DNA of 32,000 bases from Bifidobacterium longum subsp. longum JCM 1217 (GTDB taxonomy: Bacteria; Actinomycetota; Actinomycetes; Actinomycetales; Bifidobacteriaceae), in the NCBI RefSeq assembly GCF_000196555.1, contig NC_015067.1, forward strand, positions 1,530,001-1,562,000, given 5' to 3'. The translations under genes and the position numbers were made by a program. Under the pieces are notes generated by a model, which was not told the DNA's origin, made no database searches, and saw only the letters and a program-made list of their open reading frames with translations. This document shows, piece by piece, positions 1 to 24,328 of the stretch (the first letter of the stretch is position 1; the number at the start of each line of letters is the position of its first letter).

Positions 1-1538
<1,538 letters not shown>

Positions 1539-1639
1539 AACGCCCCATCGTAGCAATGTGCGAGGCCTAAGCGGCGAGGAACGCCCATGTTCACCCGTAT
1601 CGTGAGATTATCGTGCGTGATGTGGGTTCGTGATACAGG

Positions 1640-1933: not shown

Positions 1934-1945
1934 GATGCTCAGTTC

Positions 1946-3421: not shown

Positions 3422-3530
3422 CGTAGCGCTGAAAAAAAAAGAATCATTCTTTGCCAGCAAAACGCGGCTTATTGCATCGTCTTGTTTCTAGAATGGGAAA
3501 TTGAACGAATACTACGACTAGTGAGGCATT

Positions 3531-4358: not shown

Positions 4359-4381
4359 ACCTTTATCGGTCCAGATACGCA

Positions 4382-4417
4382 AAGAGGGAACTCTCCGTCA
4401 TTGGAGGGTTCCCTCTT
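4382..4417 (+). terminator. stem-loop downstream of the AKR gene
   Basis: AGAGGGAAC (4383-4391) pairs with GTTCCCTCT (4408-4416), with an inner TCTCC/GGAGG extension. TCTATATGCTTT follows. It sits between convergent transcription units. Confidence 0.5.
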
Positions 4418-4501
4418 CTATATGCTTTCGATTCGGCCACACCCTAGGTGCGAGAGCCTATGTCTTGTCGGTGTCTTGTCTTGTTGGTTTCGGGTATGCG
4501 A

Positions 4502-4533
4502 AAGCCCCTTGGGGCGTGTGCTCCAAGGGGCTT
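4502..4533 (-). terminator. rrn operon terminator hairpin
   Basis: The 11-bp perfect stem AAGCCCCTTGG / CCAAGGGGCTT has a 10-nt loop. It lies about 12 nt after the 5S 3' end and is followed on the minus strand by TTTCG. Confidence 0.5.
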
Positions 4534-4545
4534 CCTGTACGTGTG

Positions 4546-4663
4546 GTGCGGCGGCGTGCTACTCTCCCACACCCTGTCGGGTGCAGTACCATCGCCGTGC
4601 CAGGCCTTAGCTTCCGGGTTCGGAATGGGACCGGGCGTCTCACCTGGGCCATGGCCGCCGCAA
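4546..4663 (-). rRNA. rrf: 5S ribosomal RNA
   Basis: The minus strand reads ...GCGGCGGCCATGGCCCAGGTGAGACGCCCGGTCCCATTCCGAACCCGGAAGCTAAGGCCTGGCACGGCGATGGTACTGCACCCGACAGGGTGTGGGAGAGTAGCACGCCGCCGC. This includes the conserved CCGAAC and GGGAGAGTAGG-like boxes, and helix I closes GCGGCGGC/GCCGCCGC. Confidence 0.93.
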
Positions 4664-4832
4664 ATCTTCTCTTATACGGTCAGACGCTGGGGTCTGCCGG
4701 CCTGTGGCGGCCTGGGAACCGGACAGCGGACGCGGATATGTCGATGTTTCGTCTTGTGGCCAGACAATGCTCATTGCCGTCTGGTGTCGTTTGCAGGAGG
4801 AAGATGCGGTCCAACCGCCAGGGGTTGGAATG

Positions 4833-7900
<3,068 letters not shown>

Positions 7901-8327
7901 CCACGAAAGTGCATGGCCGCAAGATTCCTCTAGCAAATTCCCAGACGACAAATCATCACACTAAAAATGATCACAAAACGATCGAAACGAACAATAGAGT
8001 TCGATTCGAAATCAACAGCAAAACAAAGATTCAAAAACTCTTGTTTTGCTCGCGTCCACTATCCAGTTCTCAAGCCACCACGCACCGCCACGCCATCGCG
8101 CCGGCACACGGCCGGCCCCCAGGCACGACGGGCATCGAATCGCGCCAGGCAAAAAGCCTGGGGTGGCGATCCGGGAGCCCAAAAGCGCATCCATACCACC
8201 CCGGCACCCACCGCACGACCGGCAGGGCAAAGCCAACGACGTCTTCCACACCAGCAACCCCGCCGCCATCGCACCATGCGACGCGCGGGGCGCACACCGT
8301 CGGACGAACATCCGACTGAATTCTCCG

Positions 8328-9857
<1,530 letters not shown>

Positions 9858-10140
9858 AACTTCATGAAAAGCATCCGAATAGATGACTCTCAAAACAAAA
9901 AATTGACGAGCACGTCCTTAAGGAAGGACGCCCTCAAAAAACCTCACCCCTCATCAAACCCTCCCGGGTACCCAACCACCACGACAGGCAATCAGGCGAG
10001 GAATGAACTGGCAATCATTGACTATAAAGAAGTAGTACAAACACGCTCTTGAGTTCTCAAACCACCACCACTCACCCACCTCGCAGCTCCCCGGAGGAGA
10101 ACCACTCGCTGAGCGGCAGCAAGGAAATAACTTACACGCA

Positions 10141-10320
10141 TTCACGGACTCGCGCAAACCGGGCACGAAAAAACACGCCAGAATCGTTGCAACGACAGCG
10201 TTCCATCGGCGTGTCGAAATCAGCTTGAATCACGCCGTTACCATCAGGATACGCCGGCTTTTTATGGGGCTCACGTAACGAAATCAGATGTTCACCGGCG
10301 TGTCGCAACAATTTATTCCA
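10141..10320 (-). promoter_or_regulatory. rrn upstream leader with repeated boxes (candidate tandem promoter/antiterminator region, not resolved)
   Basis: The 10-mer CGGCGTGTCG occurs at 10207-10216 and 10297-10306, each in a similar about 20-nt context. AAATCAG is repeated at 10217-10223 and 10281-10287. I could not assign convincing -35/-10 hexamers. Confidence 0.25.
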
Positions 10321-10408
10321 CGTTCAACTCCCCTCAGTCCGATCACGCGGACGGCTCACCCGCAAAAAGCTCTCGTCCTTATGGCTCGACTATCGTCTCG
10401 CCTTCGTC

Positions 10409-10439
10409 TAAAAAAACAGTCCACCGGACTGTTTTTTTA
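10409..10439 (-). terminator. bidirectional intrinsic terminator between the GNAT gene and the rrn operon
   Basis: The perfect 14-nt arms TAAAAAAACAGTCC / GGACTGTTTTTTTA enclose a 3-nt loop. This gives a GC core stem flanked by an A7 tract and a T7 tract. It lies 37 nt downstream of the GNAT stop. Confidence 0.85.
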
Positions 10440-10475
10440 GACGCCTCAGCATCAAAGAGGGGAGCCAAAGGGGGA

Positions 10476-10976
10476 TTAGAAGGTCAGGCGCATCTGATGC
10501 CAGACCACGTCACCGTGAGTGGACTCCGAAATGCCCTCGTCCTCATACCCAAATTGCGCATAGAATCCGACCAGCCGATCTTTGCAGGTGAGCACCAGGC
10601 CTTTACGTCCAGCTGCACGAGTGTCTTCAATGACTTTCCTCATGAGTGTACTGGCGCAACCGCGATGCTGATACTTCGGCGCAGTATCCACGCCGAAAAT
10701 CATTTGCCAGTCACCTTGAGGGTTGTGCTGCGCGGCATCCTCGTACATGTCATCGGTCAAGTCACGCCGATCGGTCGCGAAACCGTTGATGAACGCCATG
10801 ACGATCTCGCCATCAATCAATAGCCAGAAACATTCCGGATAGGTCTCGATTCGGGCGCGCAGGGACGAGCGGTCGGCGGCCTCGGCGGCCGGGAAGCATT
10901 CGGATTCCATGGCGGCCAGCGCGTCCAGATCGTCGATGGTGGCGTGGCGGATTAACTGGGGATCAGAATCAGTCAT
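10476..10976 (-). CDS. GNAT-family N-acetyltransferase
   Basis: The 166-aa product has the acetyl-CoA binding region QHRGCASTLMRKVIEDTRAAGRKGLVL...FYAQFGY, typical of the GNAT fold. An AGAAGGA SD lies upstream of the ATG at 10976. Confidence 0.8.
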   Translation of the reverse strand: MTDSDPQLIRHATIDDLDALAAMESECFPAAEAADRSSLRARIETYPECFWLLIDGEIVMAFINGFATDRRDLTDDMYEDAAQHNPQGDWQMIFGVDTAPKYQHRGCASTLMRKVIEDTRAAGRKGLVLTCKDRLVGFYAQFGYEDEGISESTHGDVVWHQMRLTF

Positions 10977-11036
10977 GTTTTTGTCCTTCTCTTAACACTC
11001 CGTTGTGAGCAACTCTCCTCAATCACGCTTCGCGTG

Positions 11037-11065
11037 CTGGCTCCCCTCACCTTGAGGGGAGCCAG
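11037..11065 (-). terminator. 13-bp perfect hairpin after the oleate hydratase gene (no U-tract)
   Basis: CTGGCTCCCCTCA (11037-11049) pairs with TGAGGGGAGCCAG (11053-11065). The hairpin begins 8 nt after the ohyA stop codon. Confidence 0.55.
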
Positions 11066-11072
11066 ATGGATG

Positions 11073-12950
11073 TCAGATTACGCGGTATTCGCGTAACAGG
11101 GTGGCAATATCGGTGCCGTCGAGTTTCTTGAGCACCTTCTTGACCACGGCCTTTTCAATGAAGTTGAGCTTCATATCGGTGACCGGTGCACCGTCACGCA
11201 ATTTGACGGTGGCGTTGAGCAGGTTGCGCACGTCATAGACGCTACCCCACACTTCAGGCACGCCGCGGTCCACGCCGAGCAACGTGTAGACAGCTTCCAT
11301 ACCGGTGCGCATCGAGTATTCGGTGGTGAAAATCGTGTCGCGCGGGGTCTCGGCGAACTGGCCAAGGAATGCGAAGTTCACGGCACCATCGGGCACCACG
11401 TCCGGGCGGTCGCCGGCCGCGCGCGGCATGAAGAACGCGGTGATGTACGGCATCATGACCGGCACGGTGTTGGCGTGGTGCTTTGCGAGCGCCTCGATCT
11501 TGTCGGTCGGCACGCCCATGTGGTAAAGCCACTCCTCGCAAATCTCTTCACCGGTGCATTCGGTCATCGGCTTCTTCACATAGTTGCCGGGCTTGTCCGG
11601 GAACAGGCCGTAGACCCATACGCACAGCTGGTCCTTGGGCTGGTCGCGGAACTGCTGCTGGCGGTTCAGGGTCCAACTCATGAGCCAGTTGGAGTCCTGC
11701 ACGGTGACGATGCCGCCGGTGACGACCTTGCCGGAGAACGGGTCGCGCTTGCAGATCTTCTGGATGTACGGCGGAATCTCGCCGTCCAGGGTGGTGACGG
11801 TGGCGCTCATCCACTTGGTGGCATTCGGATCGGAGCAGAACTTCTCCGGATGGCCAAAGCTCGGGTCCTGGTCGGCGATACGCTTCCACATATCCCAGCC
11901 GCCACCGGGCTTCAGGTCTGGGTTCCATGCGGCGGGCGAGTTCTGGGAACCCATGGTGGAGTTCTCCACGCAACCGCCGTTGGTGATGAACACCAGATCG
12001 TTCTCGGTCAGGTCGATGGAGGATTTATCACCCTCGTGATCCACGTCGATGCGCACGGCAAGCTTCTTGGTGGGCGTGCTGGCAGGGTTGCGCTTGAAGA
12101 AGCCGGAGGTGGCCTGAATCTTCTGGATGGTGTCTTGGCCTACGCCGGTGTGCTCGCGCTTGGGGCCGGCTCCCCCGCCAATCGCGAATTCCACGTTCTC
12201 GACCTTGGTGTTGTAGCGGAATTCGACGCCGTGCGATTCCAGATACTTGACCATCGGCAGAATCATCGACTCGTACTGGTTGTAGCGGGTGAAACGCAGC
12301 GCGGAAAAGTCCGGCAGGCCTCCGATGTGATGAATGTAGCGCTTGATGTACAGCTTCATTTCCAGCGCGGAGTGCCAGTTTTCGAAGGCGAACATGGTGC
12401 GCCAGTACAGCCAGAAGTTGGAGTTCAGCACCTCATCATCGAAGAAATCGGTGATCGGCTTGTCATACAGGTCTTCGTCCGGGGTGAAGAACAGCTTCAT
12501 GATTTCCATCGAAGCCTTGTCGGACAGCCCGAACTTGCCCTTGAGCCCCGCGTCCTTGCCGAGATTCTTGGTGGCGCGGCACAGCGAGTAGTTCGGGTCC
12601 TCCTTGTTGAGCCAGTAGTACTCGTCGAGTACGCTGACGCCTTCGGTTTCGATGGAGGGAATCGAGCGGAACAGATCCCACATGACCTCGAAATGATTGT
12701 CCATTTCGCGGCCGCCACGCATCACATAGCCAAGGCCGGGAATATCAAGACCGTCACAGGCGCCGCCGGGTACCGGGTCCTTCTCAAGGATGTGGATGTT
12801 CTCGCCAGGCATCTGACCATCACGCACCAGATAACAGGCTGCAGACAATGCCGCCAGTCCGGTACCGATGATGTATGCATGCTTGTTGTCCACGTCGGCC
12901 GGCTTCTTCGGACGTGCGAAAGCCTCATAATTGCCGCTGCTGTAGTACAT
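11073..12950 (-). CDS. ohyA: oleate hydratase (myosin-cross-reactive antigen family, FAD-dependent fatty-acid hydratase)
   Basis: The 625-aa product starts MYYSSGNYEAFARPKKP...AYIIGTGLAALSAACYLVRDG...ILEK..VPGGACDG. That is the characteristic MCRA N-terminus with a GxGxxA FAD motif. An AGGAGG SD (12957-12962, minus strand) lies 6 nt upstream of the ATG. Confidence 0.92.
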   Translation of the reverse strand: MYYSSGNYEAFARPKKPADVDNKHAYIIGTGLAALSAACYLVRDGQMPGENIHILEKDPVPGGACDGLDIPGLGYVMRGGREMDNHFEVMWDLFRSIPSIETEGVSVLDEYYWLNKEDPNYSLCRATKNLGKDAGLKGKFGLSDKASMEIMKLFFTPDEDLYDKPITDFFDDEVLNSNFWLYWRTMFAFENWHSALEMKLYIKRYIHHIGGLPDFSALRFTRYNQYESMILPMVKYLESHGVEFRYNTKVENVEFAIGGGAGPKREHTGVGQDTIQKIQATSGFFKRNPASTPTKKLAVRIDVDHEGDKSSIDLTENDLVFITNGGCVENSTMGSQNSPAAWNPDLKPGGGWDMWKRIADQDPSFGHPEKFCSDPNATKWMSATVTTLDGEIPPYIQKICKRDPFSGKVVTGGIVTVQDSNWLMSWTLNRQQQFRDQPKDQLCVWVYGLFPDKPGNYVKKPMTECTGEEICEEWLYHMGVPTDKIEALAKHHANTVPVMMPYITAFFMPRAAGDRPDVVPDGAVNFAFLGQFAETPRDTIFTTEYSMRTGMEAVYTLLGVDRGVPEVWGSVYDVRNLLNATVKLRDGAPVTDMKLNFIEKAVVKKVLKKLDGTDIATLLREYRVI

Positions 12951-13155
12951 ATTCCGCCTCCTTGGGGCAGAGTTGACACTTCATCAACTCTTCTTGAATA
13001 GACATCATGTCGCATTATTGACGAACGCGCCATAGGCAACGTTCGGCGTTCTGCCGCATTCGCCAATACCTTGCATCTACGGTTTTCGAGGCCTATGTTG
13101 GCTGTTGGCTCATAACTATTGAAGGCATACAGGCATACTGAGGATGCGGGGTGCT

Positions 13156-13605
13156 TCACCGAACCGGATGATTGATAAGGTCCCGCTCAATCCATGCCAT
13201 GACCAAATCGGCAAGTCGGTTTACCTCCGCTTCGGCGAGTTCACGGCCTTTGGGCAGATGATGCCATTTTTCGATGCATCCGCGGCAGCATGTGGCGGTA
13301 GCATGCTGAGCGGTGAATACCGGATGGCCGCGCCATGGCGTCTGCCTGCCGTCGTTCTTCGGTTCGGCTGCGCCTATGCGGTCTCGCAACATTTCTCGCG
13401 CATGACGATCGATGGTCGCCTTGCCTTTGGTGCGGGCATAGGCTCGGTCTTTGTCGGTCAAAGCGAATTTGGCGCGGAACTGCGAATGAGACAGCCGTTC
13501 CAGCATCGTGGCAATCCATTGTTGCTCGTCATCGTTGTTACCAGTATCCGCCATCTCCATGCCCATACGTTCCACAGTAGTCGCGCACATCGTATGGTGG
13601 CACAC
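13156..13605 (-). CDS. DUF4186-domain protein
   Basis: The core KNDGRQTPWRGHPVFTAQHATATCCRGCIEKWHHLPKGRELAEAEV matches my memory of the DUF4186 signature (HPVFxAQHATATCCRxCLxKWH). The start is a GTG at 13605 with GAGGGAG 7 nt upstream. Internal ATG starts are possible. Confidence 0.7.
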   Translation of the reverse strand: MCHHTMCATTVERMGMEMADTGNNDDEQQWIATMLERLSHSQFRAKFALTDKDRAYARTKGKATIDRHAREMLRDRIGAAEPKNDGRQTPWRGHPVFTAQHATATCCRGCIEKWHHLPKGRELAEAEVNRLADLVMAWIERDLINHPVR

Positions 13606-13678
13606 GCCTTAGCTCCCTCTGATGAAGGAGCCCCCAGCAAAGCCAGGTGAGGGAGAGGCCAGGGGCGAAACCCGCCAA

Positions 13679-16600
13679 TCAGGCGGCAGGCAAGCAGCTG
13701 GGGCCAAACAGAATCTTGATCTCAGCAAACAACGAAGTATCTCGCTTGACGCGGAAACGATCGCCAAACGTGAGCACCTGAGCGTTACCCTTCTCATCCA
13801 GCACCGCAAGATGTACTTCGCAGTAACCAGGATGATTAGCGAGCACCTGACCGAGTTGCATCATGCGTTGGCGCTCCAACGCCACCGGCGGCAGCGTGAT
13901 GACCAACGGACGTTCATCCTCGGCTTCCAAGGTCGGAATCTGCATTTCCGTGGCTCTCAGAGAAACGGTTTCGTCGCGCAACTCCACTTGGCCACGAATC
14001 TGTACGATGGCGTCCACGGCAAGTTCGGCGGCGGCCGCTTCATAGACCTTGCCGAAGAACATGCATTGGATGGAGCTTTCCATGTCTTCGATGGTCACGA
14101 TGGCCCAGGGGTTGCCCTTCTTGGATACGCGCCGGTCCACATTGGTGACCAAACCAGCCAACGTGACCTGCTGTCCTTCACCCATCGTTTTGGCTCGATC
14201 AACCAGATGCGCGATGGACATTTCACGCAAGGACGCGAGAATCGACTGCATACCGGAGAGCGGATGGTCAGACACATACAGGCCCAACATTTCGCGTTCG
14301 AAGTTAAGTTTGGTCTTCTTGTCCCATTCCTCAAGATCGGGTACGGTCACGGAAGCGTCGCCCATGGCCTCCGCTCCCCCATCCTCGGCATCGGAGAACA
14401 AATCGAACTGGCCCTCCGCCTGTTTGCGCTTCAGACTCACCACCGAATCGATGGCGGCCTCGTGCACGGTGAGCAGCGCGCGACGGTTCGGGTCAATCGA
14501 GTCGAAGGCACCGGCCTTGATCAACGATTCGACCAATCGCCGGTTCAGCGCGGTCAGGGGCACGCGGCGGATGAAGTCCATGAAGTTCACGAACTTGCCG
14601 CGCGGGCCTTCGCGTTCGGCGATGATATCGGCCACGGCCTTGTCACCCACGTTACGGATGGCACCAAGACCGAATCGGACGACGTCGCCGACTGCCGAGT
14701 ACTCGTACACCGATTCGTTGACGTCCGGCGAGAGCACCTGGATGCCCATGCGGCGGGCCTCGCCCAAGTACAGTGCGGTCTTGTCTTTGTTGGTGGCGGC
14801 ACCTTGCAACAGGGCGGCCATGAACTCGACCGGGTAGTGCGTCTTCAGATATGCGGTCCAGTAGGAGATCAGACCGTATGCGGCGGAGTGCGCTTTGTTG
14901 AAAGCGTAGCCGGAGAACGGCACCAGAATATCCCACACGGCCTGGGATGCCTCTTCGGAATATCCGTGCTCCTTCATACCGGCGAAGAACGGCACCTTCT
15001 CCTTGGCCAGCACTTCGGGCTTCTTCTTACCCATGGCTCGACGCAGCACGTCTGCCTTGCCCAGTGAATAACCGGCGAGGATTCGGGCGGCGGACTGCAC
15101 CTGCTCCTGGTAGATGATCAGACCATAGGTCTCGTCAAGCACCTGCTTCAGAGGCTCCTCAAGCTCAGGGTGAATTGGCGTGATCTTCTGCAGGCCGTTT
15201 TTGCGCTTGGCATAGTTGGTGTGCGAATCCATACTCATCGGGCCCGGTCGGTACAGGGCGATAAGTGCGGAAATATCGTTGAAGTTATCGGGCTTCAGGG
15301 TTTTCAGCAGTGAACGCATGCCGTCGGAATCGAGCTGGAACACGCCGAGCGTGTCTCCTCGGGACATGAGTTTGTAGGTTTCGGCGTCATCGAGCGGAAT
15401 CTTGGTGTAGTCGATGGCGGGTTTGCCGTTGGCCTCGATGTTCTTCAGGGTGTCGTGGATGATCGTCAAGTTGGACAGGCCAAGGAAGTCCATCTTGACC
15501 AGCCCCAACGTTTCGCACGTGTGGTATTCGAAGGTGGTGGTGATGGTGCCATCGGTGCGTTCCAGCAACGGCGAGGTGTCGGTGATGGGTGCGCTACCCA
15601 TGATGGTGGCGCAGGCATGTACACCGGTCTGTCGGATCAGGCCTTCGATACCCTTGGCTTCCTCGGTGATGCGCTTGGTGTCCGGGTCGGAATCGTAGAG
15701 TTCTCGGAATTCCCTGGCCTCGGCATAACGTTTGGCGGCAGGGTCGAAGATGTCATGCAGGCTGATGTCTTTGCCGCCGGTGGCCGCCGGAGGCAGCGCC
15801 TTGGTGATTTTTTCACCGACTGAGAATTCATAACCCATGATGCGGGCGGAGTCTTTCAGGGCCTGCTTGGTTTTGATGGTGCCATAGATCACGCACTGGG
15901 CGACCTTATCGGTGCCGTATTTTTCGCCGCAGTATTCGATGACTCGCGCACGACCTTCAGGGTCGAAGTCGACATCGATATCAGGAAGGCTCACTCGCTC
16001 AGGGTTCAGGAACCTCTCGAAAATCAGGCCATGCTTGAGCGGATCGAGCTCGGTAATGCCCATGGAATAGGCGACCATGGCGCCTGCGGCCGAACCACGG
16101 CCCGGCCCCACCATAATGCCGTGGTCCTTGGCCCACTGAATGTAGTCGGCGACCACGAGGAAGTATCCGCAGAACTGCATCTGGCAGATCACACCACATT
16201 CGTAGTCGGCCTGCTTCAATACGTCGAGCGGCGGGTTGCCGTCGTAACGCTTCTCCAGACCTTCCTCGACTTTTTTGAGGAACAGGGAGGTCTCATCCCA
16301 GCCTTCGGGGCAAGGGAATTTCGGCATGAACGCGCCGTCTTCGTGGTCGTCGAACATCACGTTGCAGCGTTCGGCGATAACGAGCGTATTGTCGCAGGCG
16401 TCCGGGTGGTCCTTGAACAGTTCGCGCATCTCTTCGGCGGTTTTGATGTAGTAGCCGGTGCCGTCGAACTTGAATCGGTCCGGATCGTCAAGACGGGAAC
16501 CGGAGTTGATGCAGAGCATGGCGTCCTGCGCCTGTGCATCTTCGGCGTGTACGTAGTGGGAATCGTTGGTGGCCAGCAGTGGTGCGTTGAGTTTCTTGGC

Positions 16601-17248
16601 GATGGTCAGCAGGTCACCGGTCACCTGAGTTTCGATGGGCAGACCGTGATCCATGAGTTCGATGAAGAAGTTGTCTTTGCCGAAGATGTCCTGGAATTCG
16701 CCGGCGGCGCGCAGGGCCTCCTCGAATTGACCGAGGCGCAGACGAGTCTGGATGATGCCCGAAGGGCATCCGGAGGAGGCGATCACACCTTTGGAATAGG
16801 TGGCGAGCACCTCCTTATCCATACGCGGGTAGCGCATGACGCGACCTTCGAGGTTGGCCACGGACGAGGCTTTGATGAGGTTGACCAGGCCTTCGTCGTT
16901 TTCGGCCCACATGGTCAAGTGGGTGATAAGACCACCACCGGAGACGTCGTCGCGGCGCTGGGCTTCGGTGCCCCAGTGCACACGGGACTTGTCTTGACGC
17001 GCGGTTTCCGGGGTCACGTAAGCTTCGATGCCGATGATGGGCTTGACGCCATTGGCCACGCAGTTGGTGTACATCTCGTAGGCGCCATGCATGTTGCCAT
17101 GGTCGGTGATACCGACCGCAGGCATGCCAAGTTCGGCCGCACGCTTGGCCAAATCAGGAATCTTCGACGCACCATCGAGCAGCGAATAGTGCGTATGGTT
17201 ATGCAGTTGCACAAAGTTGTTCCCGTAATCAGCCATGCGCTCCACCAT
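13679..17248 (-). CDS. dnaE: DNA polymerase III alpha subunit
   Basis: The 1189-aa product has the N-terminal PHP domain FVQLHNHTHYSLLDGA, the polymerase core and a C-terminal OB-fold region. The second ATG at 17236 (MADYGNNF...) has a GGTGGAG SD and may be the true start. Confidence 0.97.
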   Translation of the reverse strand: MVERMADYGNNFVQLHNHTHYSLLDGASKIPDLAKRAAELGMPAVGITDHGNMHGAYEMYTNCVANGVKPIIGIEAYVTPETARQDKSRVHWGTEAQRRDDVSGGGLITHLTMWAENDEGLVNLIKASSVANLEGRVMRYPRMDKEVLATYSKGVIASSGCPSGIIQTRLRLGQFEEALRAAGEFQDIFGKDNFFIELMDHGLPIETQVTGDLLTIAKKLNAPLLATNDSHYVHAEDAQAQDAMLCINSGSRLDDPDRFKFDGTGYYIKTAEEMRELFKDHPDACDNTLVIAERCNVMFDDHEDGAFMPKFPCPEGWDETSLFLKKVEEGLEKRYDGNPPLDVLKQADYECGVICQMQFCGYFLVVADYIQWAKDHGIMVGPGRGSAAGAMVAYSMGITELDPLKHGLIFERFLNPERVSLPDIDVDFDPEGRARVIEYCGEKYGTDKVAQCVIYGTIKTKQALKDSARIMGYEFSVGEKITKALPPAATGGKDISLHDIFDPAAKRYAEAREFRELYDSDPDTKRITEEAKGIEGLIRQTGVHACATIMGSAPITDTSPLLERTDGTITTTFEYHTCETLGLVKMDFLGLSNLTIIHDTLKNIEANGKPAIDYTKIPLDDAETYKLMSRGDTLGVFQLDSDGMRSLLKTLKPDNFNDISALIALYRPGPMSMDSHTNYAKRKNGLQKITPIHPELEEPLKQVLDETYGLIIYQEQVQSAARILAGYSLGKADVLRRAMGKKKPEVLAKEKVPFFAGMKEHGYSEEASQAVWDILVPFSGYAFNKAHSAAYGLISYWTAYLKTHYPVEFMAALLQGAATNKDKTALYLGEARRMGIQVLSPDVNESVYEYSAVGDVVRFGLGAIRNVGDKAVADIIAEREGPRGKFVNFMDFIRRVPLTALNRRLVESLIKAGAFDSIDPNRRALLTVHEAAIDSVVSLKRKQAEGQFDLFSDAEDGGAEAMGDASVTVPDLEEWDKKTKLNFEREMLGLYVSDHPLSGMQSILASLREMSIAHLVDRAKTMGEGQQVTLAGLVTNVDRRVSKKGNPWAIVTIEDMESSIQCMFFGKVYEAAAAELAVDAIVQIRGQVELRDETVSLRATEMQIPTLEAEDERPLVITLPPVALERQRMMQLGQVLANHPGYCEVHLAVLDEKGNAQVLTFGDRFRVKRDTSLFAEIKILFGPSCLPAA

Positions 17249-17292: not shown

Positions 17293-18064
17293 GGCGCTAT
17301 TGCTGTTTTTGTGGGTGGTGGTTCGTCGTTGAGCCGTTGAGGGAGTAAGTGGAGAGCGCTTTCCGGGTAGGATGTTTTCGACCAAGATAAACAAACAACC
17401 GCAAAGCGCCTGATGAACAGCATATTCAACCAGCTCCTCAACGTCAAAGGCGTGGTGGTCGAGACCGTGCGGATCGTCGATTCGCCCCTGCGCCCCGAGC
17501 CCGTGCTCGAGGTTCGTGTGCGCCCGCGCAGGGGCATGCTCCGATGCTCACCGCTGTGGCAGACGTCGTCATGGTTACGACCAAGGTGGCGGCGTGCGTC
17601 GTTGGCGTCATCGGGATTTCGGCTGCTGGCGGGTCGAACTGGTCGCCATGATGCCGCGCGTGGACTGTCCCGGGTGCGGGGTCGTGGTCGCGTCCGTGCC
17701 GTGGGCGGAACCGGGCAGCCGGTTCACGCGCGACTTCGAGTCCGAGTGCGCGTGGCTGATGAGCGACCAAGCCAAGACGGAATTGAACCATTGGGTGTTC
17801 TGGGCGTCCCACAACCGTATCCCCGAGATAGTCGAACTCGCGAGGAGGATCAGGAGACGGCGCCCGGACATCCTCAGGACCATCCAACTCGGCTACTCCA
17901 ACGCCAGGCTCGAGGCGTCCGACAACCGCATCAAGGTCACCATCCGCATGGCCTACGGCTTCCACCACGTCACCAACCTCATAGCACTCGTCATGCTCCG
18001 TTGCGGCGGACTCGACGTCCGACTCCCACAACCCGCAATCTAACCCACGAAAACAGCAGAAGCC
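17293..18064 (+). mobile_element. internally deleted ISL3-family insertion sequence relic (772 bp) retaining both terminal inverted repeats
   Basis: The left end is GGCGCTATTGCTGTTTTTGTGGGT (17293-17316). The reverse complement of the right end (18043-18064) is GGCTTCTGCTGTTTTCGTGGGT. The core 15-mer matches at 14/15 and both ends start with GGC. The ends enclose the transposase remnant. The flanking 8-mers differ (TACTATAA vs TCAAAAGT), so there is no target duplication. Confidence 0.7.
17413..18043 (+). pseudogene. ISL3-family transposase pseudogene (frameshift plus in-frame loss of the DDE core)
   Basis: Frame 1 gives MNSIFNQLLNVKGVVVETV...VRVRPRRG.LRC. Reading then continues in frame 2 (shift near 17550) with HRCGRRRHGYDQGGGVRRWRH.DFG...RVDCPGCGVVVASVPWAEPGSRFTRDFE..AWL. 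It then jumps near 17785-17795 straight to the ISL3 C-terminus WA..NRIPEIVELARRIRR...G.SNARLEASDNRIKVTIRMAYGFHHVTNLIALVML.CGG. The total is about 210 aa, against about 430 aa for intact ISL3 transposases. Confidence 0.75.
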
Positions 18065-18073
18065 TCAAAAGTA

Positions 18074-18508
18074 ATGAGTAAATATGATAGTCTGGTCAAG
18101 TATATATGTATCCTTGACGGAGATAGTTTTGGCTCTTGGGTTATTGACCGTGAAAACGATGGAACGCTCGAACATCCAATTCAGATGCCATATGTAAGCT
18201 ACTCTGATATGGTGCATCATTTTATCGATGATATATATGATTTTATCGACCATAACAAGGACATGGAGCTGAACCGTTACGGTGACATTCTGAATCAGAA
18301 TGGCCTTAAATGGGGAAGCAAGTCTATGAGCACCGCAGATGTATCGAATCTGGATGCACAGTGCATCATGGCATTGATCACCGGAGCTGTCCGGGCAGAA
18401 CGATTCTGTGATGGTGCTTTGCTTGGATTTTTCAAAGATGGCAGTATCCGGAAATGGCTGGAGCGACTGAAAGAACTTGATAATGGCAGCGGAACCGAGG
18501 TGAGATAA
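18074..18508 (+). CDS. hypothetical 144-aa protein, first gene of the DUF262 cassette (family not recognised with certainty)
   Basis: This is an ATG ORF in approximately 40% GC DNA, and its stop is 4 nt before the next start. The acidic N-half and the C-terminal AVRAERFCDGALLGFFKDGSIRKWLERLKEL give no confident family assignment. The start codon is only 10 nt from the IS relic end and has no obvious SD. Confidence 0.55.
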   Translation: MSKYDSLVKYICILDGDSFGSWVIDRENDGTLEHPIQMPYVSYSDMVHHFIDDIYDFIDHNKDMELNRYGDILNQNGLKWGSKSMSTADVSNLDAQCIMALITGAVRAERFCDGALLGFFKDGSIRKWLERLKELDNGSGTEVR

Positions 18509-18512
18509 AGGC

Positions 18513-19823
18513 ATGGCTGAAATTAAGAGCGTAAATGAACTGTTGAGCATGAATCTGAATATTCCGGACTATCAAAGGCCGTACAAGTGGGATATTCAAA
18601 ACATCGACGATTTATTCCTAGACATCACCAATGCAATTAGTGATGCGGACAGATACAGAACTGAGTTCAAATACCGTATCGGAACGATCATCCTGCACAG
18701 AACAAAGAATGACACCTACGATGTGGTGGATGGGCAGCAGAGAATCATTTCTCTGGTGCTTCTAAAGCAATGCCTTGAACCGGGATTTGAGTGTTCGATT
18801 CTCCAGATAGATTTCACCAACAAGGTGAGCCAGTTCAACATTCACAGGAACTATGCGTTTATCAGAGAGTGGTTCTCCCTAAAGAGCGAAGATGTAAAAC
18901 GGGACTTTATCCATGCCTTTGAGCATATTTTAGAGGTCGTCGTTGTTTGCGTAGACAAAGTAACCGAAGCGTTCCAGCTTTTCGATTCACAAAATACAAG
19001 AGGTAAGGCATTAGACCCGCATGACCTTCTGAAAGCGTACCACCTCCGTGAAATGAAAAAGTATCCCTATGAAATGGAACACGCTGTTACAAAATGGGAA
19101 GCAAAGGATACTGAGAAGATCAAAGAGCTGTTTGATCTATATTTGTTTCCAATCTTGAATTGGAGCCGAGGCATTAAAAGCAAACCGTTCATAGCCAAGG
19201 AAATCGACACCTATAAAGGTATCGCAGAAAGCTCAACCTATTCTTACGCACGACGGGCAAGCCGAGCTATGCCGTATTTCCAGATTACCGAGCCATTTAT
19301 TTCCGGCAACGACTTCTTTGAAATGGTCGAGCATTATATGTATCTGCTCCAGGATATTAAGTCGGAGATCTGCAACAATCCCCGTTTCAAGGAGATTAAG
19401 CTGGTTATCTGCGGCGGCAAGGATGTAGAAACACCGGAAGAAATGGACAAAGTAAAGTTCGGCTCTGCCGGTTTCGGATACACGAAGAATCTGTTTTATT
19501 GTGCGCTGCTTTGCTATTACGACAAGTTCCATAACTTCGATGAAATGGCAGTCAAGAAGCTATTTTCCTGGGCGTTTATGCTCCGTGTAGATATGAAGAC
19601 CCTGGGGTTTGACAGCGTAAACAAGTACGCTATCGGTGACGAAAATTCCAGATATACAAACACAATCGGTATTTTCTCCAAGATCAGCTTTGCCCGGATG
19701 CACCACGAAATATCCGGATTGCAGATAAAGGTACGGAGAGGACCGGACAGCCCATCCAATAGATGGATAGACTTGTTGTATGACACGATCAAAGAAATCA
19801 ATGGATATGGAGGTGCGGAATGA
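18513..19823 (+). CDS. DUF262 (ParB/GmrS-like NTPase) domain protein without a nuclease domain
   Basis: The N-terminal IPDYQRPYKW, the VVDGQQRIISL box and FQLFDSQNTRGKALDPHDLLK are the DUF262 signature. No His-Me/HNH-type motif appears in the C-terminal half. The stop overlaps the next start as ATGA (19820-19823). Confidence 0.85.
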   Translation: MAEIKSVNELLSMNLNIPDYQRPYKWDIQNIDDLFLDITNAISDADRYRTEFKYRIGTIILHRTKNDTYDVVDGQQRIISLVLLKQCLEPGFECSILQIDFTNKVSQFNIHRNYAFIREWFSLKSEDVKRDFIHAFEHILEVVVVCVDKVTEAFQLFDSQNTRGKALDPHDLLKAYHLREMKKYPYEMEHAVTKWEAKDTEKIKELFDLYLFPILNWSRGIKSKPFIAKEIDTYKGIAESSTYSYARRASRAMPYFQITEPFISGNDFFEMVEHYMYLLQDIKSEICNNPRFKEIKLVICGGKDVETPEEMDKVKFGSAGFGYTKNLFYCALLCYYDKFHNFDEMAVKKLFSWAFMLRVDMKTLGFDSVNKYAIGDENSRYTNTIGIFSKISFARMHHEISGLQIKVRRGPDSPSNRWIDLLYDTIKEINGYGGAE

Positions 19824-21763
19824 GCAAATTAGTAACTGAACTTCATATTATTGGTGAAAACGGCAATATGTTCGACACAGATATGGAGTACATAATCCCT
19901 CTATACCAGAGAGCCTATGCGTGGGAGGACAAGCAACTCACCCAGCTGATTGAGGATATTAACGATGTTGCGGAGGACTCCAATTACTACATTGGCTCCT
20001 TGATCGTTTCCAAGCAGTTCGGACGATATGAAGTAGTGGATGGCCAGCAGCGGCTTACCTCGCTGTATTTGCTGCTGAACTGCCTTGGAATCAAAACAAA
20101 GCCCACACTCACATTTGCGTGTAGAGAAAAATCGAACTATACCCTAAGAAACATTGAAGAACTACTGCTCGAAAACCGCAGCAAGATCGATATGGATCGG
20201 ATTGAACCGGGAATCCAAAGGGGCATCAGGATACTATCTCACGAATTGACAAAGGATCATTTCGACAGGGAAAGCTTTATGGAAAAGCTGGCTAAAATTA
20301 TCGTCTATCGGATTGAGGTTCCGGAGAATACCGATCTGAACCGCTATTATGAGATAATGAACACCAGAGGTGAGCAATTAGAGCAACACGACATTCTAAA
20401 GGCCACGCTTATGAGCTATTTGAGTGATGATTCTGAGAAGGGCTTGTTTGCGAAGATATGGGATGCTTGTAGCGATATGACCGGCTATGTGCAGATGCAC
20501 TTCATCAGCAAGAACAATGCGGTAAGAGAGGCTATTTTCGGCTCCGAATGGAACAGTATGCCGCCTAACAGCTGGCAGAAATACAAAAAGGCTATAAGTG
20601 GAACGACACAGGAAACCACCGGACATAAAATCTGTGACCTGATCGAAAAGAACTTCAAGGTTGAAGATGATGAAGGCTATGTGGATGGTGATGTGCGTGT
20701 TCGCTTTGAAAGTGTTATTGAGTTTCCATACTTCCTGCTGCATACGCTGAAGGTCTATGTGAGTCTTTACGGTGTCACCCATGAAATAGCAACTTCAAAA
20801 ATCGTGGATGAACTCTTGGATGATAAGAAGCTCCTTGATGCGTTCAACAGAGTTGTATCCTGCGGCATAACGGATACCGGCAGGATCGCAGACAGCAAAG
20901 AAGATTTTGCCAGAGGGTTTATTATTTGCCTGCTCAGAACCAGATACCTGTTCGATAAGTACATCATAAAGAGAGAGTACGCAAATGACAGCGCTGATGG
21001 CGAATGGAGCTTGAAGAGCCTGTATGTTTCCGGACAGCAATCGAAGAAGAAAGCATATTACGGGAACTCCGAGTTCACCCGTTCCGGCGAATGGACATGT
21101 ACAAATGATTGGCGAACCAAGACCAATATTATGATGCAGTCCGCCTTGCGTGTTTCCTACACTTCCCCAAAGGTAATGCACTGGATTACCAAACTCTTGA
21201 TATGGCTTTCGGAAGCTGATTGCAAGAATATCAAAAATGATGCCATTACAAAGTTTGATAAAGTTGCCGAAAACATCGCTATTGATGCAGTAAGGGAAAA
21301 CTTCTTTCAGGTTTGTTCGAACGGCGTGTATGCGATGGGTGTCAATACTCCGCATATTGTCTTTAACTACCTGGATTACTTGCTGTGGAATGACGACCGG
21401 AACGGAAAGAAGAAGAAATACAGCGACTTTGTTTTTGAATTTAGAAATTCCGTAGAGCATTGGTATCCGCAGAATCCATCTGAGGGAACATTCGAGCAAT
21501 GGAAGGATGGTGTTGACCAGTTTGGAAATCTCTGTATCATTCAGAGAAATGTGAACTCCAAATTTTCTAATATGTCTCCGGAAGCAAAGAAAAGTACATT
21601 TAAGGATATGATAGTCAAGGGGAGTATTAAACTTCGCATTATGAGTGAACTGACAGAAAAAAACGGCGACAAACCAGCCAGCCTTTACTGGAAGGAAAGG
21701 GCGTACAAGGCGCATGAAGAAGAAATGCTTGGCCATTTGAAAAAAGCTTGCAACATTGAGTAA
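19820..21763 (+). CDS. GmrSD-like fusion protein: DUF262 NTPase domain + DUF1524 His-Me finger nuclease (putative type IV, modification-dependent restriction enzyme)
   Basis: The N-terminus carries IIPLYQRAYAW, VVDGQQRLTSLYLLL and YYEIMNTRGEQLEQHDILK (DUF262). The C-terminus carries SVEHWYPQNP...FGNLCIIQRNVNSKFSNMSPEAKK (DUF1524 EH..PQ / GNL...N..N pattern). A GGAGGTG SD lies 5 nt upstream. Confidence 0.85.
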   Translation: MSKLVTELHIIGENGNMFDTDMEYIIPLYQRAYAWEDKQLTQLIEDINDVAEDSNYYIGSLIVSKQFGRYEVVDGQQRLTSLYLLLNCLGIKTKPTLTFACREKSNYTLRNIEELLLENRSKIDMDRIEPGIQRGIRILSHELTKDHFDRESFMEKLAKIIVYRIEVPENTDLNRYYEIMNTRGEQLEQHDILKATLMSYLSDDSEKGLFAKIWDACSDMTGYVQMHFISKNNAVREAIFGSEWNSMPPNSWQKYKKAISGTTQETTGHKICDLIEKNFKVEDDEGYVDGDVRVRFESVIEFPYFLLHTLKVYVSLYGVTHEIATSKIVDELLDDKKLLDAFNRVVSCGITDTGRIADSKEDFARGFIICLLRTRYLFDKYIIKREYANDSADGEWSLKSLYVSGQQSKKKAYYGNSEFTRSGEWTCTNDWRTKTNIMMQSALRVSYTSPKVMHWITKLLIWLSEADCKNIKNDAITKFDKVAENIAIDAVRENFFQVCSNGVYAMGVNTPHIVFNYLDYLLWNDDRNGKKKKYSDFVFEFRNSVEHWYPQNPSEGTFEQWKDGVDQFGNLCIIQRNVNSKFSNMSPEAKKSTFKDMIVKGSIKLRIMSELTEKNGDKPASLYWKERAYKAHEEEMLGHLKKACNIE

Positions 21764-21769
21764 GCAAAG

Positions 21770-21814
21770 AAGCCATAGCGACAACTCCAGGCGAGAGAGT
21801 GACAGCTATGGCTT
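21770..21814 (+). terminator. candidate terminator between convergent genes
   Basis: AAGCCATAGC (21770-21779) pairs with GCTATGGCTT (21805-21814) and TTCTTT follows. The 25-nt loop is long, which lowers confidence. Confidence 0.4.
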
Positions 21815-21818
21815 TTCT

Positions 21819-22157
21819 TTACACTTCAGCGTTGAAATGCCAAACCTTGGCGGGTATTTCTCTGTTGTTGCCGCTGATCTTAATGTGGTCGGTATAGATG
21901 TTCAATTTCCAATGGTTGTACTCATTGGCGTTGTATCTTTTACATTCCTGAGTTAGATATGATTTCAGAACCTCCCACTTTACCATGAGGATGTTCCTAC
22001 TCTTCAAGCGGAGCACAACAAGGGCTTTATCGGTTTCGCTCAGAACATGGGCTTGTTCTTCTGTAATATCAACCCAATAAAAACCTTGCGGATGCATCTT
22101 CGACTGAGGGGTGAAGAATGTGATGGTTTCGCCATTCTGTTTTCTCCCTCTAAACAA
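21819..22157 (-). CDS. hypothetical 112-aa ORF (TTG start; possibly a remnant)
   Basis: This is an open frame in approximately 40% GC DNA, convergent with the GmrSD-like gene. The track start is a TTG and the first ATG is at codon 21. I recognise no domain. It abuts the IS30 fragment junction. Confidence 0.35.
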   Translation of the reverse strand: MFRGRKQNGETITFFTPQSKMHPQGFYWVDITEEQAHVLSETDKALVVLRLKSRNILMVKWEVLKSYLTQECKRYNANEYNHWKLNIYTDHIKISGNNREIPAKVWHFNAEV

Positions 22158-22226
22158 GATTTTGAGGCTTCTGCTGTTTTCCTGAGTTCTAAATAGAAGC
22201 GCAACACCTAAACCTCAACTCCCTAT

Positions 22227-22440
22227 TGAACACATACACGGATCCGCCGCTACCTGCCCAAGAGGACCAGTCTCGACGGCCTGACGGACGCCGACCTGCA
22301 GGCCATCGTCCAGGAGATCAACGACACCCCCCATGAAGGTCCCGGACTGGGAAACACCCAACGAGGCTTGGTACCGCGAGCTCGGCAAGCTAATGTCGAG
22401 GACAAGCCACCCAAAGACGAGCATTGCACTTACAAATTGA
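22227..22440 (+). pseudogene. IS30-family transposase, C-terminal fragment with a frameshift
   Basis: The plus strand reads ...RIRRYLPKRTSLDGLTDADLQAIVQEINDTP. After a +1 shift at about 22330 it reads MKVPDWETPNEAWYRELGKL...* with the stop at 22438-22440. This matches the conserved IS30 tail (R.Y.PKG.dls....eL..i...lN.RPRK.LgW.TP.E.). The GC is about 60%, flanked by AT-rich DNA. Roughly the C-terminal 70 codons are visible. Confidence 0.6.
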
Positions 22441-22559
22441 ATCCGGGCCAGCCACTCGCCAACAACGTATCGGTCCATTATATGTCAGCAACATTCTGAA
22501 CTATCATGAACCATCAAGTACAACTAACTACTGAGAAAATCCAATCTTGCGAGAGGAAA

Positions 22560-23858
22560 TTATGCGGCGGTGATGCTATTTCTGATCATCGTGCGCCATT
22601 GAACGCGGCTAATAGGAGAAACAGTCTGGAATTGTAAAGACCTCAGGATCGTAAGGGCCTCTCTGTCCAGGGTCAACAAACTACAAATTCTGCGATCCTG
22701 TATCATACAATCAAAGTTAATTCGTTCTAAACCATAATGATCGAACAATCTCTGTAACAAACCGCCCCACCGGCTAAGCATCTCTATCAGGTTGCTCGGC
22801 GACGCCATATTCCACACAGTCATATATCTTTTATCCGAATACAGAGGTATGCACTGTGAAGCTCTGACTATTTCCGCCTTCTTTATGCCCGTTTCTTTGG
22901 AGGCATCCGCTATATGCCAAACATATGCGTATGGCGGATCATGCAGGATACATCGGATTAGCTCCAACATATCATAAAGGCGTTTCTTGGACCCTTTATC
23001 GCATTCCAGAGCCGCGCTAGCGAACCCAGATCTTTCACCACCTTCACAATGTATAATCCGAAGCTCATGTCTTTCGGTATCCACTTTGGGCCAGCTCCGA
23101 TTGGCTTTCATCAAAAGGTTTAGACCGTCAATAATCTCATTGATACAGAACTCAGACACATCCTTCGTCAAATCACTGAGCACTCGTATATGAATATCGC
23201 AATCCGTCTTCTCCGTGAATATATGATTCACCCAACGCGCGCCAGTTATCTTATACTCAGAGAAACGAAGCATACAATCATCTATATTTCTTCGTGCACT
23301 ACTCAACTGAGCGAGCATCTTTAATTCATCTAATCCAATGCGGCAATGAGTGCTTCCACAACTAAATTGTATTGTCGATATCCCATATTTAGGAAATACA
23401 TAACACAAGCGGTCAGACCAAGATTGAAAGCGAGCGAAAGTGCCAGGAGGCAATGACCTAGCACCAACGTCACCTCCAACTTCAAGAGGACAGCAGCCAA
23501 CCCCTCTCCCATTCTCATCCTGCAGATCAAGACCATTACTCTCATTTAGATAGCTTTGAAACGCATAGCACAAAGACATCAAAATGGCGATGGCCGCACG
23601 GTCATAAGCAGATTGAAAATCAGCAGTCGCCTTTCCGTTCACATCGGCCTGCAACACGCAGCAATCAGCAACATATTCATTCGCGCTGTCAGAAGGACGA
23701 AGATTAAACTGACATAGGGCCACACCAAAATGCTCCATATATGTCAGGTGCTCAAAATACTTCTCTATTGCAACACCGATTTCGCCATAAAGCGTTCGCG
23801 CAAGCTCAATGGGAATTCTTTTACCTTCATCCCGGATTACGTTCATGGTCACGGACAC
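22560..23858 (-). CDS. hypothetical 432-aa cysteine-rich protein, no recognisable domain
   Basis: This is a long uninterrupted ORF 41 nt downstream of the FtsZ-fragment gene on the same strand. The start is a GTG at 23858 with GAAGGAG 10 nt upstream (alternative ATG at 23846). No transmembrane segments, no P-loop and no tubulin signature were seen. Confidence 0.7.
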   Translation of the reverse strand: MSVTMNVIRDEGKRIPIELARTLYGEIGVAIEKYFEHLTYMEHFGVALCQFNLRPSDSANEYVADCCVLQADVNGKATADFQSAYDRAAIAILMSLCYAFQSYLNESNGLDLQDENGRGVGCCPLEVGGDVGARSLPPGTFARFQSWSDRLCYVFPKYGISTIQFSCGSTHCRIGLDELKMLAQLSSARRNIDDCMLRFSEYKITGARWVNHIFTEKTDCDIHIRVLSDLTKDVSEFCINEIIDGLNLLMKANRSWPKVDTERHELRIIHCEGGERSGFASAALECDKGSKKRLYDMLELIRCILHDPPYAYVWHIADASKETGIKKAEIVRASQCIPLYSDKRYMTVWNMASPSNLIEMLSRWGGLLQRLFDHYGLERINFDCMIQDRRICSLLTLDREALTILRSLQFQTVSPISRVQWRTMIRNSITAA

Positions 23859-23899
23859 GGCTAATCAACTCCTTCATTAGGCAATCAGCAGCTGCAGAA

Positions 23900-24328
23900 T
23901 CAAACACTGTCCGAGCATCGACCGAATCCGATTACTGTGACCTCTCCGCCCGAATCAATTTGGCCATCGAACATCATGCCCCAAACAATCATGGCATCAG
24001 GTTGAACGCAGGCACGTATCTCATCCACAGCACGCGTTACTTTCTGGAGTTTTTCATGAGCCGAACAAGCGAAAGAGATGCAGACGGCGTTCATCATCTT
24101 CAACGAATCATTTGAGAATGATGCCATTGCGCGCTTCGCGGCCTCAACTATTCCATCCGTACCTTCTGCTTGGCCAGCGCCGGACCAAGCCAGATCGTTG
24201 CCGCCCATCGCCGCTTTGATATCGGACCAATCAACATGTATGTACGAAGAATTCATATCAGATATATCATCCAATACCCGAAAACCAGCGTTTAACTTTT
24301 TCGCCATCTGCAACTCTTGCTTGTCCAT
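23900..24328 (-). CDS. stand-alone FtsZ-like H7/T7-loop/C-terminal-subdomain protein (no GTP-binding domain)
   Basis: VLDDISDMNSSYIHVDWSDIKAAMGGNDLAWSGAGQAEGTDGIVEAAKRAMAS...DAMIVWGMMFD....GEVTVIGFG aligns by eye with FtsZ GVQGISDLI.PGLINVDFADVKT.MS..G.A.MG.G.A.GE.RA.EAAK.AISS...IFG.......VTVIATG. An AAGGAG SD lies 5 nt upstream of the ATG at 24328. Confidence 0.7.
   Translation of the reverse strand: MDKQELQMAKKLNAGFRVLDDISDMNSSYIHVDWSDIKAAMGGNDLAWSGAGQAEGTDGIVEAAKRAMASFSNDSLKMMNAVCISFACSAHEKLQKVTRAVDEIRACVQPDAMIVWGMMFDGQIDSGGEVTVIGFGRCSDSV

Follow-up and report, generated by a model that had tools for sequence, protein, structure and literature searches.

A TgvAB-like gene pair preceded by a DUF6508 gene in Bifidobacterium longum subsp. 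longum JCM 1217

The window analyzed here is a stretch of 32,000 nucleotides (nt) from the genome of Bifidobacterium longum subsp. longum JCM 1217 (NC_015067.1, positions 1,530,001 to 1,562,000). It contains a cassette of three genes at positions 18074-21763 of the window, here designated g1, g2 and g3. We consider it probable, at about 80%, that this cassette is a horizontally acquired two-subunit, modification-dependent type IV restriction system of the TgvAB type, formed by g2 and g3, to which the upstream gene g1 has been added as an accessory.

Organization of the locus

The three genes are located on the forward strand and their open reading frames (ORFs) are all intact in the window. 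The gene g1 (18074-18508) encodes an acidic DUF6508 protein of 144 amino acids (aa) and is an optional accessory gene lying outside the conserved TgvAB pair. The gene g2 (18513-19823) encodes a TgvA-like protein of 436 aa with a DUF262 domain (ParB-like NTPase/sensor, residues 8-177) and a DUF7834 domain (residues 187-409). The gene g3 (19820-21763) encodes a TgvB-like protein of 647 aa composed of a GmrSD_N domain (residues 18-197), a helical linker and a GmrSD_C domain (residues 515-637). Four nucleotides (aggc) separate the stop codon of g1 from the ATG of g2, and the stop of g2 overlaps the start of g3 in the sequence ATGA (19820-19823). This coupling junction (19809-19823, forward strand) includes a Shine-Dalgarno sequence GGAGGT (19809-19814), located within the end of g2 and six bases 5' of the ATGA. 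An earlier note on this DNA, made from the sequence alone, had described three ORFs with this gap and this overlap, and the coordinates were re-derived exactly. Ten B. longum genomes, complete or draft, carry an unchanged g2 protein at this locus, with dnaE on one side and an AddAB-like helicase-nuclease pair on the other, and the protein is likewise unchanged in more than 2,500 data blocks.

The content in guanine and cytosine (GC) amounts to 0.435 in the cassette, while dnaE has 0.582 and bases 1-17000 of the window have 0.584. The low GC content reported in the earlier note stands, and the contrast is slightly milder than the one given there (approximately 44% against 58%, instead of 40% against 60%). 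On the left side, the border is formed by a relic of an insertion sequence (IS), namely an ISL3-family transposase gene (17413-18043, forward strand, 64% GC), and the low-GC cassette begins about 30 nt later. The ORF 17516-18043 matches the Pfam families DDE_Tnp_ISL3 (E 9e-16), HTH_Tnp_ISL3 and Zn_ribbon_ISL3. This gene is truncated, since the match to the DDE profile spans only positions 163-238 of 240. On the right side, a relic of an IS30-family transposase gene (22240-22448, forward strand, 61% GC) shares 77% identity with a B. longum gene annotated in this family (NZ_CP065398/CP065396). The position between two IS relics is thus as the earlier note had described it, and its view of a mobile defence cargo agrees with a foreign low-GC cassette bordered by IS relics on both sides. 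The closest relatives, with 72-89% identity, were found in gut Clostridia. From the low GC content, the Clostridial relatives and the IS relics on both sides, the cassette appears to have been acquired horizontally.

The genes g2 and g3 are related to TgvAB

The Pfam matches obtained for g1, g2 and g3 all exceed the curated cut-offs. The protein g2 matches GmrSD_N/DUF262 (E 2e-28) and DUF7834 (E 6e-51) and contains no nuclease domain. The protein g3 matches GmrSD_N (E 6e-33) and GmrSD_C/DUF1524 (E 4e-11). The profile check proposed in the earlier note therefore finds DUF262 in both proteins and DUF1524 in g3, and it bears out the description of g3 as a protein of GmrSD architecture and of g2 as a nuclease-less DUF262 paralogue. 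The motif boxes that it listed are also present in both proteins: YQR at residues 20 (g2) and 29 (g3), DGQQR at residues 73 and 74, and NTRG at residues 161 and 181, respectively. The His-Me signature of g3 is composed of EHWYP (546), GNL (569) and NVNSKF (577). Between g2 and g3 the identity is 30%, confined to the DUF262 domain (E 4e-15). The PADLOC models HEC-06, Orf5 and SspE match the N-terminal domain of g3.

The TgvAB system of Vibrio cholerae was described in 2024 (PMC11014532, PMC11411939). TgvA carries DUF262 only, TgvB carries DUF262 and DUF1524, and their ORFs overlap. Neither gene is protective alone, the activity requires both DGQQR motifs and the His-Me residues of TgvB, phages with glucosylated 5-hydroxymethylcytosine are restricted, and the system works as two genes in Escherichia coli (PMC11014532, PMC11411939). 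The sequences of TgvA (VC1767) and TgvB (VC1766), cut at 399 residues each and thus ending ahead of H571/N602 of TgvB, were taken from Table S5 of O'Hara et al. for comparison. In Pfam, TgvA displays GmrSD_N and DUF7834, as does g2, and the same composition is found in one Pasteurella and one Syntrophomonas homologue. With BLASTP, g2 is 25% identical to TgvA over 378 aa (E 4e-24) and g3 is 26% identical to TgvB over 411 aa, through the linker (E 3e-32). Both alignments are colinear through the regions located outside DUF262.

O'Hara et al. (2024) list in their Table S5 the matches to their two-gene TgvAB model. Entry 7 of this table comes from B. longum subsp. infantis ATCC 15697, with ACJ51918.1 as the TgvA-like protein (match to VC1767) and ACJ51917.1 as the TgvB-like protein (match to VC1766). 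The table prints 399 residues of each protein, and over this length ACJ51918.1 is identical to g2 and ACJ51917.1 is identical to g3. The domain composition of TgvA, the BLASTP alignments and this identity place g2 and g3 in a named and experimentally characterized family. The earlier note had held that such an arrangement is not among the characterized enzymes and had named a prior listing of the triplet under a system name as a point against this claim. The claim does not hold for g2 and g3, which have the layout of TgvAB, are homologous to it and are already listed as TgvAB through the identical pair of subsp. infantis. The two genes are co-oriented and overlapping, with the domains of the A and B subunits, the NTPase motifs and the homology to VC1767 and VC1766. 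On this sequence basis, g2 is assigned as a TgvA-family protein and g3 as a TgvB-family protein, encoded by translationally coupled genes that move as a discrete module of two, and the arrangement of three genes departs only slightly from the known TgvAB kind. In full-text literature searches, we found no paper mentioning DUF7834 and none on B. longum with GmrSD.

The resemblance to the V. cholerae system, encoded by VC1767/VC1766 on VPI-2, thus includes the order of a DUF262-DUF7834 protein followed by an overlapping DUF262-DUF1524 protein, the DGQQR motif in both, the His-Me motif in the second, a significant colinear similarity and the presence of the B. longum pair on the authors' own list of homologues. 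The B. longum pair differs from TgvAB by an identity of only 25-26%, by a location outside any type I restriction-modification (R-M) operon, by an overlap of 4 nt instead of 8 nt and by the extra upstream DUF6508 gene, which TgvAB lacks. [quoted passage not shown]

The protein g3 also shares its DUF262-linker-DUF1524 layout and its motifs with the single-chain GmrSD enzymes (Eco94GmrSD, BrxU, HEC-06) and with SspE. However, these enzymes function on their own, in homodimeric form, and the nuclease subunit of the present cassette comes with a coupled paralogue that lacks a nuclease; moreover, the PADLOC matches cover mainly DUF262 and the sequence matches in the PDB are weak (E 3.5e-6 at best). 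The result obtained with TgvB alone in V. cholerae and the coupling to g2, which 70 of 72 relatives keep, argue against the sufficiency of g3 as a single-protein enzyme of the GmrSD, BrxU or HEC-06 kind.

Distribution of the pair and of the triplet

The relatives of g2 were collected from four assemblies and 80 metagenome contigs, and their neighbours were scored with local profiles. Where there is room downstream, g2 is directly followed by a g3-type gene in 14/14 B. longum-type copies and in 56/58 diverged copies (70-89% identity), that is to say the coupling is kept in 70 of the 72 relatives with enough downstream sequence. The overlap between the two genes is usually of -4 or -8 among the relatives. 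The DUF6508 gene adjoins g2 in all 13 B. longum-type copies and in none of the 58 diverged copies. The DNA homology to the relatives devoid of g1 spans from the ATG of g2 (18513) to the stop of g3 (21764). The claim of the earlier note that the three genes form one unit, taken as an obligate unit, is not supported, in view of this absence of g1 beside 58 diverged relatives and of a DNA homology that begins at the ATG of g2. The pair g2-g3 is the core and g1 is an add-on in a minority lineage.

Beyond B. longum, the triplet was found on two contigs only (L160 and L024), each with 72-77% DNA identity. L024, a metagenome-assembled genome (MAG) of Mailhella, is colinear with the window from 18074 to 21444. 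In L160, an IS21 element follows g1 and the initial 190 nt of g2, and the remainder of g2 and g3 come after it. This element, at positions 1400-3990 of the metagenome contig, lies in the 5' part of the g2 homologue and its insertion is independent of those observed in two B. longum strains (L008 and L009), where IS21-family elements (IstA and IstB) are inserted between g3 and a 432-aa gene. An ORF of 154 aa upstream of a pair devoid of g1 (L102) was considered as a divergent DUF6508 and is not one.

The DUF6508 protein g1

The protein g1 belongs to the family DUF6508 (PF20118; E 3e-15, 56.5 bits for a Pfam gathering score of 23.6). The earlier note had presented it as an acidic 144-aa protein that could not be placed; its length and acidity are as described, and its placement is given by this Pfam family, whose function is unknown. 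Its isoelectric point (pI) is 4.75 and its net charge is -9. The acidity is a property of the family, where the median pI is 4.7 and 65/70 members are below 5.5. DUF6508 comprises 971 cluster representatives at E ≤ 0.001. Against four homologues, the proportion of nonsynonymous differences (pN) is 0.13-0.18 for a proportion of synonymous differences (pS) of 0.74-0.84, the latter being saturated; g1 is a real gene under purifying selection. Its sequence is identical in nearly all B. longum copies. A truncation of g1 by the neighbouring IS was also considered and was dropped because the homologues start with the same MSK... N-terminus; the homology begins at the ATG.

An AlphaFold2 model of g1, built from an alignment of 70 sequences, has a pLDDT of 95.1 and is mostly helical with one hairpin. 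When the PDB was searched, either with the sequence of g1 alone or with a profile of the 70 sequences, one match only was obtained, at chance level (E 0.17-0.53). PADLOC, NCBIfam and PHROGs gave no match to g1, and no paper mentioning DUF6508 was found in full-text literature searches. A general role of the protein in regulation or in assembly is conceivable. In Pfam no helix-turn-helix (HTH) family matches g1, and the features of a controller protein (C-protein) were not found in this acidic protein whose model matches no solved structure; at other loci, it is a separate HTH_26 gene that precedes the DUF6508 gene or the g2-g3-type pair.

Genomic context and domain fusions of DUF6508

A genome scan was realized with 14 close DUF6508 sequences, and the 80 best-scoring loci, from different species and 53-77% identical to g1, were retained. 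A nuclease partner on the same strand, within two genes or fused, was found at 51 of 82 non-redundant DUF6508 loci. The partner is a PD-(D/E)XK_4 protein at 18/82 loci; in the usual arrangement the overlap is of 8 nt, and an unknown protein of 349 aa comes next. GmrSD-type partners are found at 15/82 loci and McrB/McrC partners at 11/82 loci, and a 338-aa unknown protein with two C5-methylases (Dcm) is present at 7/82 loci. Many junctions between DUF6508 and its partner overlap by -8 or -4, and such stop/start overlaps occur with three unrelated nuclease families. Contigs from viral collections (n = 16) give the same picture, with a nuclease partner at 13/15 loci. A large serine recombinase gene is often located just upstream of the DUF6508 gene.

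DUF6508 is also found fused to other domains. The fusion McrC-DUF6508 is present in Lancefieldella/Atopobium and the fusion GmrSD_N-GmrSD_C-DUF4268-DUF6508 in three MAGs. Elsewhere, the GmrSD-DUF4268 nuclease is accompanied by a separate DUF6508 gene upstream, or by a gene directly downstream in which DUF6508 is fused to an ADP-ribosyl glycohydrolase domain (ADP_ribosyl_GH, ARH); the latter arrangement is observed in L192, L193 and L195. Fusions of DUF6508 with NADAR and with Macro domains were found as well. ARH, NADAR and Macro represent three unrelated folds of ADP-ribose hydrolases, and these erasers act on ADP-ribosylated DNA bases (PMC11543638, PMC11125620). Nothing supports a functional tie of DUF6508 more strongly than these domain fusions. 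The unannotated N- and C-terminal extensions of the DUF6508 fusions and the Macro and NADAR parts were compared with hhalign, and no comparison exceeded 30% probability, the alignments being shallow.

The partner may change when DUF6508 does not. Proteins 99% identical in DUF6508 precede GmrSD-DUF4268 in a Bacteroidales MAG and PD-(D/E)XK_4 in Jeotgalibaca. Between L046 (positions 1-598) and L037 (positions 6819-7416), the DNA identity of 99.7% ends 5 nt past the DUF6508 stop and unrelated nucleases follow; therefore, the 3' end of DUF6508 is a junction for the exchange of nuclease cassettes. In L052 and L043 the 3' junction of DUF6508 is likewise sharp, and the DNA identity ranges over the junctions from 97 to 99.7%. 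The boundary between g1 and g2 in the window shows the same kind of exchange junction.

Variation of g3

A hypervariable stretch (21083-21124, forward strand) corresponds to residues ~422-435 of g3, 'SGEWTCTNDWRTKT'. Among 23 B. longum-type copies, it is represented by 13 alleles, for about five variable sites in the rest of g3 and none in g1. The changes consist of scattered amino acid-changing substitutions, a deletion of 3 nt and a replaced version (DEEEAS). The stretch holds a unit of 21 nt, AATGATTGGCGAACCAAGACC (TNDWRTK), present in 0, 1 or 3 copies according to the strain. A mechanism like that of diversity-generating retroelements (DGR) was considered and dropped because the substitutions are not adenine-specific. 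The sequences suggest that a loop of the linker domain is under diversifying selection. Two B. longum copies have an altered reading frame: in L007 (equivalent to position ~21430 of the window), g3 is split into 539 and 124 aa after 'GKKKKY', and in L002 (equivalent to position ~21660), g3 encodes 632 aa with an altered tail. These frameshifts are either inactivations or sequencing errors.

Proposed function of g1 and alternative explanations

We read g1 as a partner-agnostic accessory rather than a core subunit, with a possible link to conflicts based on ADP-ribosylation. Its role is constrained because DUF6508 is acidic, indifferent to its partner, sometimes alone and repeatedly fused to ADP-ribose erasers. 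Tentatively, g1 might be a small acidic module binding a protein or a small ligand rather than DNA, which would protect or regulate the nuclease in such a conflict. It could bind an ADP-ribosyltransferase (ART) of a phage or plasmid, or an ADP-ribosylated target, in the manner of DarG, and it could shield the nuclease from an ART-type anti-restriction factor or report such an attack. The ART anti-CRISPRs offer a precedent for counter-defence of the ART type (PMC12421852). The analogy with DarG-type antitoxins concerns g1 only and lies at the level of the logic, the DUF6508-eraser fusions being comparable with the association of a macrodomain and a DarT-binding domain in DarG. Unlike DarG, DUF6508 has no gene for DarT or another ART nearby, shows no similarity of sequence or fold to it and, in the window, stands alone beside a nuclease. 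For the family as a whole, we hold with low confidence that DUF6508 is an unrecognized accessory of restriction systems dealing with ADP-ribosylation, which would either neutralize ART-type anti-restriction factors or recognize ADP-ribosylated DNA.

Several points weigh against this reading of the locus and of g1. Foldseek comparison of the g1 model with the PDB and BFVD gave no match, nothing being below E 0.29, and searches of these two databases revealed no fold or sequence similarity of DUF6508 to ADP-ribose-binding or ART-binding domains. In Pfam no ART family was detected on the window ORFs scanned or beside the Macro and NADAR fusions, on contigs of 1.6-3.7 kb; the DarTG-like arrangement of an ART toxin gene beside an eraser or binder was thus found neither in the window nor on these short contigs. 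No nuclease is near DUF6508 at 31/82 loci, where the neighbours are LysR, TetR, GNAT or ABC proteins with no theme, and the census is based on the 80 best-scoring loci per scan and a crude longest-ORF caller. Concerning the cassette itself, some B. longum strains have a frameshifted g3, in runs of A, and the ISL3 relic replaces the native region upstream of g1. A simple scan of positions 17300-22600 revealed no promoter-like site upstream of g1, although such a site is not to be expected for every operon; the expression of the cassette is therefore only presumptive.

The alternative that g1 is a passenger, i.e. the conserved flank of a hot spot for cassette exchange on integrative elements with no role in restriction, is unlikely. 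It would account for the homology between loci that stops 5 nt past the DUF6508 stop with a different cargo afterwards, for the serine recombinase genes often just upstream and for the 31/82 loci without a nuclease partner. The idea is most strongly argued against by the independent fusions to McrC, GmrSD-DUF4268, ARH, NADAR and Macro and by the stop/start overlaps with three unrelated nuclease families; the nuclease partners at 51/82 genome loci and 13/15 viral-contig loci and the strong purifying selection on g1 also speak against it.

It is rather improbable that g1 is a reader of DNA modifications, for instance of ADP-ribosylated bases, which would widen the range of targets of the following nuclease. 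The partners are indeed modification-dependent nucleases (GmrSD, McrBC), and the three erasers of ADP-ribosylated DNA bases, Macro, NADAR and ARH, are each fused to DUF6508. The strong acidity of g1 (pI ~4.7, charge -9) is however unusual for a DNA binder, its fold does not resemble those of the known readers, and many DUF6508 copies stand alone without effector. In the EVE, SRA and YTH-type readers of McrBC and other type IV systems, a small module likewise occurs in cis with, or adjoining, several unrelated nucleases; DUF6508 differs from them in being mostly helical, acidic and often alone, with no match to those folds.

The possibility that the window copy is a decaying, silent relic, to which we give little credence, is suggested by the IS relic upstream of the ATG of g1 and the result of the promoter scan there, by the frameshifted or split g3 of some strains and by the IS21 insertions nearby. 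Against it stand the three intact ORFs of the window, the g2 protein unchanged in more than 2,500 data blocks and the loop of g3, whose many amino acid-changing alleles, for an otherwise constant protein, suggest an ongoing selection on the protein.

The heteromeric variant of the earlier note, read as an enzyme of three obligate components with g1 as an integral subunit for activity or control, is very unlikely: the spacing of 4 nt between g1 and g2, the invariance of g1 across the B. longum copies, the retention of the triplet in two further lineages with 72-77% DNA identity and the covalent fusions of DUF6508 to GmrSD-type and McrC proteins would fit with it, but g1 is absent from the 58 diverged TgvAB-like pairs, the V. 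cholerae TgvAB is functional as two genes in E. coli, and the presence of almost identical DUF6508 proteins before unrelated nucleases speaks against an interface specific to one partner.

With the TgvAB-type pair and its accessory g1 as the preferred reading, the cassette itself is not new and represents an unremarkable case of a named defence family, in a commensal that is very common in the gut. It is useful for explaining the transformation barriers and the phage resistance of B. longum. The value lies in g1, a conserved gene with no fold match, constant before exchangeable restriction nucleases and fused elsewhere to Macro, NADAR and ARH. If the link to ADP-ribosylation proves to be functional, the B. 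longum triplet would be a TgvAB hardened against a counter-defence based on this modification, and an unexplored layer of the arms race would emerge, where ADP-ribosylation is used against type IV restriction or sensed by it. With its three genes, the B. longum locus is a simple system in which to test this link. The hypervariable loop of g3 is a second and independent handle, and may mark a site of contact with an inhibitor or a substrate.

Neighbouring genes and other DUF6508 clusters

Between g3 and the IS30-family relic, the reverse strand bears an ORF of 112 aa (21819-22157) that matches no family and that only some strains have as a called gene. The homology to the other TgvAB-like loci stops before it. 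The low-GC region (45%) extends beyond the IS30-family relic with two conserved genes on the reverse strand (22560-24328), both present at all ten B. longum loci. The first encodes the 432-aa protein mentioned above and has no match in Pfam, PADLOC, NCBIfam or PHROG; the second encodes a protein of 142 aa with a weak match to the FtsZ C-terminal domain (E 9e-8). These genes may represent a second, unrelated piece of cargo.

In Flavonifractor plautii (L012 and L014-L016, positions 5764-10960), the genes HTH_26, DUF6508, a McrB-like AAA+ protein of 1063 aa and McrC follow each other in this order. This McrBC array is located at the end of a prophage, beside holin and amidase genes, and McrB/McrC are fragmented in some assemblies.

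A recurrent unannotated cluster was detected in Lachnospiraceae (L078, L079, L084, L090, L092 and L093; positions ~5980-12500 in L078). Its genes encode a 334-aa protein with DUF7662, a DUF6508 protein, an unknown protein of 338 aa and a pair of C5-cytosine methylases, and the cluster may be an R-M-like system. Its DUF6508 protein has a length of 335 aa, with an unknown C-terminal extension of 195 aa. In L196 and L197, the counterpart of this 335-aa fusion bears a Macro domain instead.

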